Positions 51,621 through 57,791 of a DNA stretch of 64,000 nt are shown here, piece after piece. The notes under the pieces are model-generated. The model saw nothing but the letters and a program-made list of their open reading frames with translations. It was not told the DNA's origin and did not search any database. Made by a program: the position numbers and the translations under genes. The stretch covers positions 1,056,001-1,120,000 of the forward strand of contig OZ245046.1 in the NCBI GenBank assembly GCA_965224245.1, read 5' to 3'. This DNA comes from Candidatus Eiseniibacteriota bacterium. Its GTDB lineage: Bacteria > Eisenbacteria > RBG-16-71-46 > CAZAMP01. The first letter of the stretch is position 1, and each line of letters opens with the position of its first letter.

Positions 51621-51811
51621 GCGGCGCGCCCCCGGTACTTCCACTAACCTTTTGTTGGTAGGAACGTTGTGCTGCCCGGGGTCGGTATCGGCTGCTCGGC
51701 CGACCTGGCCCGGCTCGCCTCCGACCCGAACGCCGCGTGCGTTCGAGCACGATCCTGGTGTTGCTCTGGCGACAACCGACCGATCACGTCCGATCAACTC
51801 GGAGGCCCGTC

Positions 51812-54800
51812 ATGGCGCATTCGCCCGCCGGCACGCCCGTTCTTCCGTCTCCTTCGCGCGTCGCGGCCATGGCCACCGCCTTGCTCGCGCTCACCGGTGC
51901 GGCCCATGCGCACCTGTCCATCATTCGCCAGGGCTACGAGAGCGCGGAGATCTCGGAGTCCAGCGATCAGCACGGATTTGCCGTGGCGGCCGGTGATTTC
52001 AACGGCGACGGATACGACGACCTCGCGATGGGCGCCCCCCAGGAGGACGGTCCCGCGGGCGCCAACTCCGGCGTCGTGTGCGTGAACTGGGGCTCGGAGT
52101 ACGGCATCACGCACGAGGGCGCAATCGTGTACGACGCCGACGACATGGGGGGGGCCGCCAGCGCCGGGGCGAACCTCGGCTTCGCGCTCGCGTCGGAAGA
52201 TCTGGACGGAGACGGGTTCGACGATCTGATCGTCGGCGCACCCTTCGAGACGGTGAACGGAGCGGCCGGCGCGGGCGCCGTCTACGTCATGACGGGAAGC
52301 ACGCTCGGGCTCGTGCCCTGGCTGCGGATCGACCAGTCCGACCTCGGCGGCACGGCCGAGACGGGCGACTGGTTCGGGTTCTCGCTGGACACGGGGTATC
52401 TCGACGACGACGCGTACCCCGATCTGCTGATGGGTGCCCCCGGCGAGGATACGGCCCGGGGAACCGTGTGGTTTCTCTTCGGAACGAGCACCGGTCCATA
52501 CGGAAGCGCGAACCACATCAATCCCACATACGGCGGCTACTCCACCGGGAGCGGCGATTTCTACGGCTACTCGGTGGCCGCCGGGAACTTCATGGGCGGC
52601 GCAGAAGACGACATCATCGTCGGGGCCCCACACTTTCCCCAGGCCAGTGCGCCGAGCGACCTCGGTGCGGTCTTCGTGACGCCCGGATCCGCGGGCGGCC
52701 CCGATCGGGCGGCGACGCGCCGGTACTTCGCCAACGGCGGGCAGGCCGGCGCCGAGTTCGGACGCTCGGTGGCGGTCGGACACCTCCTCTCGAGCGCGTA
52801 CGACGCGGTCGCGGTGGGCGAGCCGCTCCACGACAAGGGCGGGATCGTGGACGCGGGGCGGGTGACGGTGTATCCGGGCTGGTCGGGTGGTCTCAACACC
52901 GATGCCGCACTTCCGCTGTACAGCTCGGTGGCCGGCGGGGTCGACGAGGCGAGCGACGGATTCGGTCAGGTGCTGGCCGTGGACTACTTCTGGGACGCGA
53001 GCGACGGCTACCAGGACCTCGTCATCGGAACGCCCGGCGAGGGGTTCGGCACGCCCGACGCGTATGGTCAGGTGCAGATCCTCAACGGTGGTCCCTCCGG
53101 GCCCATCGGCGCCTACGGCTGGTTCGGGTTCAACCAGGGGACGCTCAACGAGACGCCCGAGCCGCTCGACGTTCTGGGAGCGTCGATCGCCTTCGGTCGC
53201 TTCGACGGCACCGACCTGGTGAACCTCGCCGTCGGCGCGCCCGGCGAGGACGCATTCGGCGGCATGGTGCACGTGATCGCGCCGTGGCGCCAGGTGTTCA
53301 ACCTGTCGTGCGACAACTCCATCGTCCTCGACTGCGACGAGAACATCTACTTCTCACAGAAGCCCTTCGAGCGGGTTCGGATCGCGTCGACCACGAAGAT
53401 CATGACCGTGCTGATCGCGGTGCAGGCGGTGGAGTGGTATGACGAGCTGTCCTACGACGACGTCTACACCGTTCCGGCGTGGGTGGCCGACCAGATTCCC
53501 GGCTCGCAGGTTCCTCTCTTCGAGGGCGAGACGATCACGCTCCGGGATCTCATGTACACGTGCCTGATGCTCTCGGGAAACGACGCCGCGTTCGCGATCG
53601 CGGACATGATCCAGGGGGGCGAGGGCCCCGACGTGTCGGTGCCGCTGTTCGTGGCCCGCATGAACGCGATCGCGAGCATCCTGAACATGGACGACACGCA
53701 CTTCCACAACCCGGCGGGACTCGACGAGGAGCCCGTGGGCCCGGACCTGGGCGAACACTACTCCACGCCCCAGGACATGGCCAAGCTCAGCGCATATGCG
53801 ATGACGTTCGACACGTTCCACACGATCGCCGGCACCACGGCGTGGCCCATGGTCCGGCACTTTCCGGCCTTCGACATCGCGTGGACGGTCAACAACATCT
53901 TCGCCGGCGTGCTGATGAACAACATCGAGCCGCTCGTCGGCATCAAGGGCGGCTACACGACGCTCGCCCAGAACACCGGCTGCTTCGCGGGCGAGACGCC
54001 CCTCGGCGCGCGATCCATCGCGGGCACGTATCACACGCCCGACGCGCTGAGCGACAACTATGGCCCCGATGCGGGTGCGCTCGTGCAGCTCGGGCTCGGG
54101 TCGTGCGGGTTTTCGTTCGAGCTACCCGACGAGTGGTCGTATACGGACAGCCCGATCAACATCGGTCGCGTGTCGTCGGGTGTGGGGAGTCGTCGCGGAT
54201 TCTCCTCGGGCATCCCGCGAGAGTTCCATGGCGACATGGCGTACTCGGTTTACCGGACCTCTTGGGACACGGGGCTGCCGTCCTCGTTCGAGGCGTGGAT
54301 CACGCACGTGGCCGAGCTTCGGGGCCGGGCCTCGTATGAGCTCGGCGCGAGCCACCACGACGGACACGGCCCGATCAAGATCACGAACGTCGGCGACGCC
54401 ACCGCCTCGGTACAGGTGTGGCAGCCGATCGACGTCACGACCGTGGACCTCGAGCCGGGGGAGACGGCCCTGGTGCCCGAGTACCTCGGGCGATGGGCGC
54501 TCGGCTTCCCGGTGCGATTCACGTCGAACGGCGGCGAGAGCCCGATCGACCTCGACGTGGAGATCCCCTGGCGCCATCTCGTGACGGCGCCGGAGGCGCC
54601 GACGTCCGATCCCGTGTACCAGACGACGCTCATGCGGGAGAGCGACATCCGGGATCAGGTGGAGATCCGGACCGAGGGGATGGATCCGGCACCCGACTTC
54701 CACTCCATCGTCGGTCACGTGGAAGGGGTGCTGCTCGAGGCTCCGGATCCGGCGGGGACCGAGCCGCCGGCCGCCATCACGCTTCGCGCACCGACGCCGA

Positions 54801-55063
54801 ACCCGTTCCGCGCGGCGGCCCGGATCTCGTTCGACCTCTCCCGCGCGGGAGAGGTCGGTGTCGAGATCTACGACGTGTCGGGTCGCCTCGTACGCACGTT
54901 CGCGCCCCAGCGCATGGCGCCCGGAGGCTGGGGTCTCCGGTGGGACGGCCGCGACGACGGCGGCGCCGAGGCGGCCAGCGGCGCCTACTTCTACCACGTC
55001 GTCGTCGACGGTGAGGTCGCGGCCACCGGCAAGCTCACCCGCATCGTCGACGCGGCGGGGTGA
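51812..55063 (+). CDS. Fusion: integrin-alpha FG-GAP propeller, S11 D-Ala-D-Ala carboxypeptidase, FlgD-Ig C-terminal domain (paralog 2)
   Basis: GGAGG RBS; FG-GAP repeats; IASTTKIMT, SGNDAA, FHNPAGLD, IKGGYT; PNPF...GAYFY. Confidence 0.85.
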   Translation: MAHSPAGTPVLPSPSRVAAMATALLALTGAAHAHLSIIRQGYESAEISESSDQHGFAVAAGDFNGDGYDDLAMGAPQEDGPAGANSGVVCVNWGSEYGITHEGAIVYDADDMGGAASAGANLGFALASEDLDGDGFDDLIVGAPFETVNGAAGAGAVYVMTGSTLGLVPWLRIDQSDLGGTAETGDWFGFSLDTGYLDDDAYPDLLMGAPGEDTARGTVWFLFGTSTGPYGSANHINPTYGGYSTGSGDFYGYSVAAGNFMGGAEDDIIVGAPHFPQASAPSDLGAVFVTPGSAGGPDRAATRRYFANGGQAGAEFGRSVAVGHLLSSAYDAVAVGEPLHDKGGIVDAGRVTVYPGWSGGLNTDAALPLYSSVAGGVDEASDGFGQVLAVDYFWDASDGYQDLVIGTPGEGFGTPDAYGQVQILNGGPSGPIGAYGWFGFNQGTLNETPEPLDVLGASIAFGRFDGTDLVNLAVGAPGEDAFGGMVHVIAPWRQVFNLSCDNSIVLDCDENIYFSQKPFERVRIASTTKIMTVLIAVQAVEWYDELSYDDVYTVPAWVADQIPGSQVPLFEGETITLRDLMYTCLMLSGNDAAFAIADMIQGGEGPDVSVPLFVARMNAIASILNMDDTHFHNPAGLDEEPVGPDLGEHYSTPQDMAKLSAYAMTFDTFHTIAGTTAWPMVRHFPAFDIAWTVNNIFAGVLMNNIEPLVGIKGGYTTLAQNTGCFAGETPLGARSIAGTYHTPDALSDNYGPDAGALVQLGLGSCGFSFELPDEWSYTDSPINIGRVSSGVGSRRGFSSGIPREFHGDMAYSVYRTSWDTGLPSSFEAWITHVAELRGRASYELGASHHDGHGPIKITNVGDATASVQVWQPIDVTTVDLEPGETALVPEYLGRWALGFPVRFTSNGGESPIDLDVEIPWRHLVTAPEAPTSDPVYQTTLMRESDIRDQVEIRTEGMDPAPDFHSIVGHVEGVLLEAPDPAGTEPPAAITLRAPTPNPFRAAARISFDLSRAGEVGVEIYDVSGRLVRTFAPQRMAPGGWGLRWDGRDDGGAEAASGAYFYHVVVDGEVAATGKLTRIVDAAG

Positions 55064-55179
55064 CCGCGGTCCCGGTGACCCCGATCGGGCGTTTCGCACG
55101 ATCGTCTTGCAGGTTTCTCCCTCCGATTTCGAATGGTCGAGGACCACGACCATTTCGACGCGAAGGAGGACCCGACGCG

Positions 55180-55659
55180 ATGACCACGACGATCCGCGAC
55201 CAGATCGCGCGCGACGAGATCGCGCGCGATGACATGTCGATCGACTGTCCAGAGCTGTGGCCGCCTCTCGAATCGCGACGTCCGACGCTGCTCTACTCCG
55301 GTACCTGACGGTTCTGTCGATGGGCGGCGCGGGTCGTCGCCAGGATCGATCGAAGCCGCCGGGTGAGCCTGTTGCCGCTGGCCGATCCCGAGGCCGGGCG
55401 ACTCCTGGCCGACGTTCCCGAGGATCGACGCCTCGGGTCCTGGTGGCTCGTCTCGTCCGATGGCAGGCCCGTCCCGGGAGATCGAGGGGGTGGCATCGCC
55501 CTCCTGACGGCGCTGGGGCCCACGCACCGTCTGGGACGCGTGCTCGGCGCGCTCGGCCTGTCGGCCACCGTGGACGCTCTGGATCGCTGGCTGTCCGTCA
55601 CCCGCGGACGCCTCGGCCGGTTCGTCCCGGACGGTCCGGCGCCTCGCTGCTTTCCCTAG
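55180..55659 (+). CDS. DCC/DUF393-family thiol-disulfide oxidoreductase; candidate selenoprotein (in-frame TGA 55306-55308 as Sec43, UxxC)
   Basis: AAGGAGGA RBS; LLYSGT-[TGA]-RFCRWAARVVARID...LLPL continues in frame to TAG at 55659; TGA sits at the first Cys of the DCC CxxC motif; SECIS-like hairpin follows. Confidence 0.7.
55317..55349 (+). promoter_or_regulatory. Putative bacterial SECIS element
   Basis: TCGAT-G-GGCGGCG-[CGGGT]-CGTCGCC-AGG-ATCGA; apical loop begins 21 nt after UGA with G at loop position 2. Confidence 0.55.
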
Positions 55660-55739
55660 GCGGGGGCGGTCCCGCCGGGCGGCACCTCGGGCCGACCCTG
55701 GCGGATGCCGACCGGGCGATCGAGGTGTAGAATGTCCGG

Positions 55740-57791
55740 ATGACCCGAGATGCACGCGCCCACACTCGGTCTTGCGGACCCGTCCGAGGCTCGCGACGCG
55801 GGCGCTGGCGGGCGCTCAGCCTCGTGCTGGTTCACGTCGTGGCGGGGCTCCATGTGCTCCACTGGTGGCGCACCGGCCGGACGATCACCCCGGTCGAGCC
55901 CAGCGAGGCCATGCAGACGCTGGGCGAGGGGCTGGTCAACGCCGGCTTCGTCCTCTTCGTCGTGCTCATCCTGGGTACGATGATCTTCGGCCGGTTCTTC
56001 TGCGGCTGGGCCTGTCACATCGTCGCCCTCCAGGATCTCTGCACGACGCTTCTCCGGAAGCTCCGGATCGAGCCGAGGCCGTTTCGCTCGCGCCTTCTCG
56101 TGTACGTCCCCCTGGCGGCGGCCGTCTACATGTTCGTCGCCCCGACGGTCGTGCGGCTGTGGCTCGGGCAGTCGTTCCCGGGACTCCGCGCGCACTTCGA
56201 GACCGACGACTTCTGGGCACGCTTTCCGGACTGGCCGATCGCCGTGCTGACGTTCGTGGTGTGTGGGTTCGTGGCCGTGTGGGTGCTCGGGAACAAGGGG
56301 TTCTGCACCTACGCGTGTCCGTACGGTGGCATCTTCGGGCTGGCCGATCGGGCCGCGCCGGGCCGCATTCGCGTGACCGATGCCTGTGACGGCTGCGCGC
56401 ACTGCACGGTGAGCTGCACCTCCAACGTTCGCGTCCACGAGGAGGTGCGAACCTGGGGCATGGTGGTCGATCCGGGCTGCATGAAGTGCACGGACTGCAT
56501 CAGCGTCTGTCCGATGGGCGCGCTCCACTACGGCTTCGGCGCACCCGGCCACAAGCGCCGGACGGATGCTCCTCCCGTGCGGCCTCGATACGACTTCACC
56601 TGGCCTCAGGAGATCGCGATGGCGGCGATCTTCCTGGTGTCGATCGTCACGTTCCTGGCGCTCTACGACGCGGTGCCGCTTCTGATGGCGCTCGGTCTGG
56701 CCGCGATCACCACGCACGTCGTGATGACCCTGGCTCGTCTCCGGACGGATCGGAACGTGACGTTCGCGCGTCATCGCCTGCGGACCGCCGGGCGCATGCA
56801 GCGCCGTGGGTGGGTGTTCGCGGTGCTCGCGGTCGTGTGGACGCTCTTCACGCTCCACAGCGCGGCCGTGCAGGCGAACGCGCTGGCCGGACAGCGGGCG
56901 GTGGCGGCGGCGCGAAAGGCACCGGCGGCACCGGTGGACGCGCTGGAACACGGCCGGCGACTCCTCGAGCGTGCCCGCTCGTGGGGTCTGTTCGAATCCC
57001 CACAGCTCGACGTTCGCCTGGCGGCGGTCAACGCGCAGCTCGGCGACGTCGGCGCCGCCGAGGCACTCTACCGGCGGGCGCTCGCGCACGAGCCCGATCT
57101 TCCGGAGGCCCACCACGCGCTGGCCCGGATCGCGCGAGAGCGCGGCGATCTTCCGGGGGCCCTGAAGCACCTCGAGGCCGTGGTGAACGAGGAGCCCGAG
57201 TTTCCGAGCGGTCACAACGATCTCGCCGAGGTGCTCCTGGATCTGGATCGCAGTGGGGATGCCGTCGCGGCGATGGAGGTGCTCGTGGCGCGGCGGCCGC
57301 ACCATCTTCCGTTCAGGGTGACGCTGGCGGTGGTGACCGCGCACGACGGACGGGTGGACGAGGCGCTCGCGCAGCTGCGCGCGATCGCCGAGGCACATCC
57401 CGAGGACGCGTCGTCGCGGCTCATGTACGGCCTCATCCTCGCCTCCGAGGGTCGGCTGGAGGACGCGCTGGCGTCGGTGCGCGCGTCGCTGCGTGTGGAT
57501 CCGGAGAACGCCGAGGCGCACTACACGTGCGCGCGGCTCCTGATCCAGCTCCGCCGCACCGACGAGCTGGCGACACATCTGGAGGAGGCGTGCCGGCTGG
57601 ATCCGTTCCAGCCCACGTACGCCACGGCGTGGGCGGCACTGATGGCGCGCTCCGGCCGGGCCGATGCACTCGTGGCTGCGTTGCGGGCCCGGGCGGCGGG
57701 CGATCGAGCCGCACGCTTCCGGCTGCTCCACCTCCATCGCGCGCTCGGCCACGAGGCGGATGCGGGGGCGCTGGCGCGGGAGTTCGAGTGA
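55740..57791 (+). CDS. Membrane 4Fe-4S-binding protein (NapH/MauN/YccM-like polyferredoxin) fused to C-terminal TPRs
   Basis: GRFFCGWAC, FCTYACPYG, CDGCAHCTVSC, CMKCTDCISVCP; multiple TM helices; TPR tail. Confidence 0.85.
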   Translation: MTRDARAHTRSCGPVRGSRRGRWRALSLVLVHVVAGLHVLHWWRTGRTITPVEPSEAMQTLGEGLVNAGFVLFVVLILGTMIFGRFFCGWACHIVALQDLCTTLLRKLRIEPRPFRSRLLVYVPLAAAVYMFVAPTVVRLWLGQSFPGLRAHFETDDFWARFPDWPIAVLTFVVCGFVAVWVLGNKGFCTYACPYGGIFGLADRAAPGRIRVTDACDGCAHCTVSCTSNVRVHEEVRTWGMVVDPGCMKCTDCISVCPMGALHYGFGAPGHKRRTDAPPVRPRYDFTWPQEIAMAAIFLVSIVTFLALYDAVPLLMALGLAAITTHVVMTLARLRTDRNVTFARHRLRTAGRMQRRGWVFAVLAVVWTLFTLHSAAVQANALAGQRAVAAARKAPAAPVDALEHGRRLLERARSWGLFESPQLDVRLAAVNAQLGDVGAAEALYRRALAHEPDLPEAHHALARIARERGDLPGALKHLEAVVNEEPEFPSGHNDLAEVLLDLDRSGDAVAAMEVLVARRPHHLPFRVTLAVVTAHDGRVDEALAQLRAIAEAHPEDASSRLMYGLILASEGRLEDALASVRASLRVDPENAEAHYTCARLLIQLRRTDELATHLEEACRLDPFQPTYATAWAALMARSGRADALVAALRARAAGDRAARFRLLHLHRALGHEADAGALAREFE

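Follow-up and report, generated by a model that had tools for sequence, protein, structure and literature searches.

Within the window, i.e., the whole stretch of 64,000 nucleotides of Candidatus Eiseniibacteriota DNA that was analysed, a frame running from 55180 to 55659 on the forward (+) strand is composed of 42 sense codons, an in-frame TGA (55306-55308, +), 116 sense codons and a final TAG (55657-55659). If the TGA is read as U, no other stop is encountered and the frame comprises 159 codons followed by the stop; its putative product is a DCC1-like thiol-disulfide oxidoreductase with the motif U43-R-F-C46. In this U-x-x-C motif, codon 43 is the TGA, and the TGT at 55315-55317 (+) encodes Cys46, the second (resolving) residue. 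The initial annotation had described two open reading frames, 55060-55308 and 55363-55659, which share one frame and are split only by a TGA, and both these coordinates and the length of 159 amino acids on read-through were found to be right. The two are the halves of a single frame that is open from 55309 on, and the GTG at 55363 is merely the first start codon usable by the ORF lister rather than a real frame boundary. The strong ribosome-binding site also claimed there corresponds to a Shine-Dalgarno-like AGGAGG, read from the sequence at 55165-55170 (+), with a 9-nt spacer to the ATG at 55180. As for the true start, the ATG at codon 19 could be an alternative to that at 55180, because residues 1-33 are unconserved and are modelled with a low pLDDT (51-63). 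The region 55100-55700 is found with 0 differences in Logan contigs from three runs, all of the same sample, so that the TGA is present in these read data too; since the sample may be the assembly's own source, this comparison excludes only a slip in this particular assembly. Another run (X4) does not reach the TGA, and the public runs listed as holding the region include none of RNA.

The gene just upstream (51737-55063, +) encodes 1108 amino acids with FG-GAP repeats, a D-alanyl-D-alanine carboxypeptidase domain (Peptidase_S11) and a C-terminal FlgD Ig-like domain (FlgD_ig), and it ends with a TGA (55061-55063). The downstream gene (55740-57791, +) encodes 683 amino acids with 4Fe-4S domains (Fer4_5, Fer4_7) followed by many TPR repeats; no recurrence of this gene beside the homologues of the 55180-55659 frame was observed, and the neighbours in the window gave no functional lead. 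The clustering of stop-to-stop ORFs of at least 90 amino acids within about 2 kb of 128 loci, which is a crude approach in high-GC DNA rich in spurious ORFs, revealed recurrent neighbours that are clade-specific, none of which includes the window.

The read-through protein matches the Pfam family DCC1-like (PF04134) through residues 37-146, aligned with profile positions 1-111 of 113 and spanning the TGA; the match is marginal, with 28.0 bits against a cut-off of 27.8. A search of the same protein against NCBIfam returned no family match, and the genome-wide search with PF04134 listed only the other copy of the domain, which is of the Cys type, and not the 55180-55659 locus. This second copy (G000:C1:5298957-5299289, -) carries a C-x-x-C motif and reaches 96-99 bits. 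The difference between 28.0 and 96-99 bits implies that the window protein represents a divergent subfamily.

The protein collection contains 84 homologues, falling into two classes. The first includes full-length proteins of about 123-160 amino acids with a C-x-x-C motif, named in their sources as DCC family, DUF393 or "DCC family thiol-disulfide oxidoreductase YuxK", the close ones also bearing a precomputed PF04134 annotation. The second includes many pieces of 93-115 amino acids that start just past the position of the TGA and are entered as "hypothetical protein" (e.g., the NCBI entries of 96-105 amino acids). Such a class of short fragments is what would be expected if Sec forms were cut by gene callers. 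In the alignment of the 84 members, C43 is conserved in at least 90% and C46 is the only invariant column. The N-terminal redox motif of DCC1-like proteins is D-x-x-C-x-x-C; the position of its Asp is occupied by Ser in the window and, among 82 TGA sequences, by Ser in 44, by Asp in 28 and by Ala in 7.

An AlphaFold2 model of the read-through protein, built on the 84-row alignment, has a mean pLDDT of 88.3 and a pTM of 0.77. It contains a strand (36-39), a helix (44-56), a second strand (63-66), short helices, two further strands (89-91 and 97-99) and three helices extending to residue 148. Residue 43 is placed at the N-terminus of the first helix, directly ahead of residues 44-56. In thioredoxins and glutaredoxins the attacking Cys likewise sits just before the first helix. 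The comparison of the model with the PDB through Foldseek gave a best E of 0.067 and nothing at E <=0.001; a wide search with VIA gave best rows with Z from 5.2 to 3.2 (the best with an rmsd of 2.9 A over 76 residues), and according to this tool a Z below 8 may reflect merely a common arrangement. The top rows of both searches, weak as they are, belong nearly all to the thioredoxin fold (N-domains of GST, glutaredoxins, NrdH, thioredoxins, ArsD and CLIC). The model is hence worded here as consistent with a thioredoxin-like fold. The search by sequence among solved structures disclosed no relative, the one match being at chance level (E 0.13).

Outside the Pfam domain, the C-terminal tail (residues 147-159; 55618-55656, +) shows near-invariant columns in two alignments and a pLDDT of 91-96 in the model. 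These 13 residues are proline-rich and near-invariant across the subfamily, and could represent a docking motif for a partner.

Related loci were retrieved through the conserved peptide pattern of this tail, and the sample thus represents only the tail-bearing subfamily. A total of 131 loci was fetched, 51 of which derive from one-per-species genomes and 80 of which are the best of 151 found in metagenomes; in 127 of them the tblastn alignment with the read-through protein includes column 43, four (L072, L125, L128 and L144) falling short. Three TGA loci (L024, L026 and L040) lie in genomes flagged as unpublished, and no result depends on them. The alternation between TGA and Cys codons that the initial annotation had proposed to look for, with conservation on both sides, is evident: the codon at column 43 is TGA in 98 loci, TGC in 24 and TGT in 5. 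The TGA, which at that stage might still have been peculiar to this assembly, is therefore shared with 98 related loci. Within the aligned stretch, a single stop is present in every one of the 99 TGA rows and no stop in the Cys rows; a Cys is found at +3 in 96 of the 98 TGA loci (2 are without it), and an in-frame ATG, GTG or TTG lies upstream in 94 of 98, two of the others running off the contig and two (L078 and L050) being without a canonical start.

Both flanks of the TGA bear the mark of protein-level selection. Over 82 distinct TGA sequences, the mean entropy at codon positions 1, 2 and 3 is 0.44, 0.44 and 1.25 in the nine codons upstream of the TGA and 0.42, 0.35 and 0.82 in the fourteen codons downstream of it, and the peptide upstream is near-fixed (R in 80/82, P in 78/82, L in 78/82 and Y in 76/82). 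A stop codon that three phyla retain at the same column, between flanks that are both under purifying selection, is not a nonsense mutation. A pseudogene, i.e., a dead or dying gene in which a TGC or TGT codon has mutated to TGA, would need nothing but a single-base change, and both the Cys forms of the same subfamily (29 of 127 loci) and the lack of a close relative with the gene for comparison are compatible with it; against it stand the occurrence of the same TGA in 98 loci from at least three phyla, the codon-position periodicity on both flanks and the fact that no second stop or frameshift is present in any of the 99 TGA rows.

According to the record titles, the TGA form is found in 14 of 14 Gemmatimonadota, in 18 of 32 Actinomycetota (the carriers being mostly Gaiellaceae and other Thermoleophilia) and in 2 of 3 Acidobacteriota; the single alphaproteobacterial locus has a Cys codon. 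A rapid maximum-likelihood analysis of 127 rows, with column 43 masked and L070 omitted, gave a tree whose best topology requires at least 10 Sec/Cys changes; the well-supported branches by themselves require 2, and shuffled labels 26.3 on average. The window protein stands alone on its own branch, its best identity (66%) being with a metagenome locus. Among 40 genomes of the same family or class, 39 yielded no homologue and one gives a weak match (E 8.9e-4, 38% identity over 82 residues); hence, the gene is not traceable within its own lineage. The locus L070 (2028-2087), from a Gemmatimonadetes MAG, keeps the TGA and has a deletion right past the C-R-W-A motif that removes the hairpin described below together with some of the domain; it probably reflects either a defective copy or an assembly fault.

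A SECIS-like hairpin follows the TGA at 55323-55341 (+). It starts 14 nt past the UGA and has a 7-bp stem, in which 55323-55329 pair with 55335-55341, and a 5-nt loop (55330-55334, CGGGU), the first base of which is 21 nt after the A of the UGA; a G occupies loop position 2. The window sequence alone does not fold significantly better than its shuffles (z -1.46 over 76 nt, with 15 of 200 shuffles as good; z -1.79 over 45 nt, with 10 of 200), so that the case for a hairpin beyond chance comes from comparative evidence only. The RNAalifold analysis was performed on 60 nt from the TGA in 82 distinct sequences (L070, unalignable on account of its deletion, was left out). The consensus is one helix, joining columns 18-24 with 30-36, which coincides with the window stem and its 5-nt loop. 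In this structure 96.7% of the cells are paired, a level that none of 500 shuffles attains (their mean is 92.8%), four of the seven pairs show compensatory changes on both sides (1 of 500 shuffles has as many), and the covariation score is 0.162 vs 0.101 (reached by 0 of 500). When the partner strand is shifted by 1-3 columns, pairing amounts to 27-85%, with fewer compensatory changes except at +2 (21 cells). The G at loop position 2 is present in 83 of 83 distinct TGA sequences, the consensus loop being C/A-G-G/U-N-N. The initial annotation had described a two-tier hairpin: its stem-loop, the 21-nt distance and the G at loop position 2 stood, and its lower tier turned out to be particular to the window. 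In fact, the lower pairing (55317-55321 with 55345-55349) is formed in 47.1% of the cells across the 82 related sequences, with no both-side change. Likewise, the folding suggested there yielded a conserved and covarying hairpin when relatives were included, and nothing beyond chance for the single window sequence. An alternative register, given by the minimum-energy fold of 45 nt of the window, was rejected, its pairs being formed in 68.3% of the cells in relatives and in 67.8% in shuffles.

The hairpin goes with the TGA. All six core pairs are preserved in 97 of 98 TGA rows vs 3 of 29 Cys rows, a contrast that is inflated by relatedness; the independent-pairs sign test for Sec with intact hairpin finds only 2 pairs on supported branches (p = 1) and has no power. 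Loop position 3 is a C in 0 of 98 TGA rows vs 18 of 29 Cys rows, which is a synonymous choice of Arg codon. The contrast between the two forms is informative because the peptide encoded across the hairpin (A-A-R-V-V-A) is similar in both. A hairpin that appears to be under selection at the RNA level and that accompanies the TGA, not the Cys codon, adds to the evidence set out above against a pseudogene, which we regard as extremely improbable.

The machinery on which the initial annotation had made its reading depend is present in the host genome, which is 97.4% complete. A tRNA-Sec scores 71.9 bits (cut-off 47) and is called by ARAGORN as tRNA-SeC with anticodon tca; selA (515.8 bits), selB (324 bits) and selD (378.4 bits) are all over their cut-offs. 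The selD gene of the host (G000:C1:4218184-4219107, +; locus L018) has itself one in-frame TGA, the selenophosphate synthetase being in turn a selenoprotein. TGA ends 20 of 23 open frames of the host with at least 300 codons and GC3 >0.8, besides the gene just upstream of the locus; it is therefore an ordinary stop in this genome and a reassigned code is excluded.

The genome loci derive from 50 genomes; selA exceeds its cut-off in 42 of these, namely in 28 of 34 with TGA and in 14 of 16 with Cys, and selB is over the cut-off in 0 of the 8 genomes without selA. Six of these eight are TGA genomes (MAGs whose completeness is unstated), five of which have selD and the sixth a selD fragment at a contig end, with an in-frame TGA. 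The other two are Cys genomes in which selB and selD are also below the cut-offs, one of them being largely a single 2.6-Mb contig. Thus, among the 50 genomes, there is no TGA carrier without a Sec-trait gene or fragment, and both trait-less genomes use Cys. In a Gaiellaceae MAG, selA was matched as two adjoining pieces (G074:C14:143356-144563, -; 304 + 174 bits), pointing to a frameshift or to faulty assembly.

These data also bear on the possibility that the TGA is read through by something other than Sec, either by a near-cognate Cys or Trp tRNA or by Cys carried on tRNA-Sec. Computation does not distinguish the inserted residue, and Cys is tolerated at position 43 in 29 natural homologues; such a read-through is nevertheless very unlikely in view of the full Sec machinery of the host, of a suitably spaced SelB-type hairpin whose conservation is limited to TGA forms, and of the distribution just described, in which one or more Sec-trait genes or fragments occur in all 34 TGA genomes, and Cys codons in the two genomes devoid of them.

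A different possibility is that the TGA is a real stop, which would give a 42-residue peptide and a separate C-terminal protein started downstream. The products of 93-115 amino acids reported by gene callers in several sources would be in agreement with it, as would the usual role of TGA in the host. The annotated downstream starts, however, vary by locus (from 93 to 115 amino acids), protein-level conservation extends over the 14 codons lying between the TGA and these starts, among them that of the invariant Cys46, and the C-terminal piece would miss the whole redox motif as well as the first strand and helix; moreover, no ribosome-binding site is seen by eye ahead of the GTG at 55363. Termination at this TGA is accordingly held to be very improbable, and the short "hypothetical protein" entries among the homologues agree with the earlier expectation that gene callers would split the gene.

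The alternation at column 43, the covarying hairpin, the machinery and the coding character of both sides support the reading of a Sec-containing DCC protein advanced in the initial annotation. On this sequence-level evidence, 55180-55659 is very probably one intact, functional selenoprotein gene of the DCC1-like (DUF393) family, whose TGA would encode Sec. Both the cis and the trans parts of bacterial Sec insertion are present, and in the Sec forms selection acts on them; from these parts we infer that recoding takes place. The product would be a small cytoplasmic protein of the thioredoxin fold, in which the first Cys of the redox motif is replaced by selenocysteine. Given these components, SelB with Sec-tRNA(Sec) would bind the hairpin at 55323-55341 and place Sec at codon 43 without termination. 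Because of the motif, the model and the family annotation, it can be proposed that Sec43, directly ahead of helix 1, would attack a disulfide or an oxidised substrate, that Cys46 would resolve the intermediate as a selenenylsulfide, and that a cellular reductant would then reduce the latter. The selection of Sec at the attacking position argues that the redox chemistry of DCC proteins may be catalytic and rate-limiting.

In the minimal SECIS of E. coli fdhF, which begins 11 nt past the UGA, the upper stem bears a bulged U, and the loop, which contains GU, lies at a fixed distance from the UGA. The consensus stem found here is, instead, a plain 7-bp helix with no bulged base and a 14-nt spacer. 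It resembles the bacterial SECIS (E. coli fdhF and the bSECISearch consensus) in being a hairpin located in the coding region just past the UGA, with an apical loop that is small and includes a G, the features given as common to these elements in PMC1088965.

Sec-containing thioredoxin, glutaredoxin, DsbA-like, thiol:disulfide interchange and redoxin-family proteins are listed with UxxC in Table 1 of PMC13188914. Like these selenoproteins of the thioredoxin fold, the window protein would have Sec in place of the first Cys of CxxC at the start of helix 1, Cys homologues are common and the SECIS lies directly behind the UGA; unlike them, it matches PF04134 and not PF00085, PF00462, PF01323, PF13098 or PF08534, and it has extra C-terminal helices (100-148, in the model) and the conserved tail. 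With the Cys-type DCC1-like/DUF393/YuxK proteins (PF04134) it shares a domain match over the whole length and both redox positions; it differs from them in the putative Sec at the first Cys and in its lower score, as reported above. Arabidopsis DCC1 is described in PMC6603150 as a thioredoxin that is functional and that affects mitochondrial complex I and ROS; no bacterial PF04134 member with a tested function was found in the literature.

The same review (PMC13188914, 2026) describes its Table 1, which comprises 119 families and subfamilies, as the fullest inventory of selenoproteins, and neither this table nor the text has an entry for PF04134, DCC, DUF393 or YuxK. The terms DCC, DUF393 and YuxK are also absent from the text of PMC13326102 and PMC12013277 (the BSepDB and deep-Sep papers). 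In the main text of openly available papers no description of a Sec version of DCC/DUF393/YuxK/COG3011 was found; an earlier mention in a supplement or a subscription journal is possible. On balance, it seems somewhat probable that this is a selenoprotein family present in no published inventory, with a Sec majority in a DCC-like subfamily, many Sec/Cys exchanges and nearly every Sec copy annotated as truncated. The Sec form accounts for about three quarters of the sampled loci of this subfamily, which is spread among Gemmatimonadota, Actinomycetota (Gaiellaceae and their relatives) and Acidobacteriota from soil and sediment; if the family is indeed as described, it may rank among the more common selenoproteins in these soil phyla, which have been little studied. 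It would add to selenium biology a thioredoxin-fold family with repeated Sec/Cys exchange and would extend the use of selenoproteins in Gemmatimonadota, Thermoleophilia and Vicinamibacteria, little sampled by earlier surveys centred on marine and gut environments. At least 98 loci are annotated as fragments or not at all, a defect that would be corrected by a family model into which a Sec-aware rule is built; in addition, Sec at the attacking position would offer a handle for biochemical work on the DCC family. A UxxC selenoprotein of the thioredoxin fold with a standard bacterial SECIS is of a standard kind, and the advance is incremental, since Sec would be inserted by the usual bacterial mechanism and new Sec families of this sort continue to be described at regular intervals (nine in PMC12013277).

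Finally, the second, Cys-type DCC1-like domain of the genome, reported above, is fused behind an RNase_T/DnaQ-like exonuclease domain in an ORF of 398 amino acids (L154:1414-2610, -), an uncommon combination of redox and nuclease functions.
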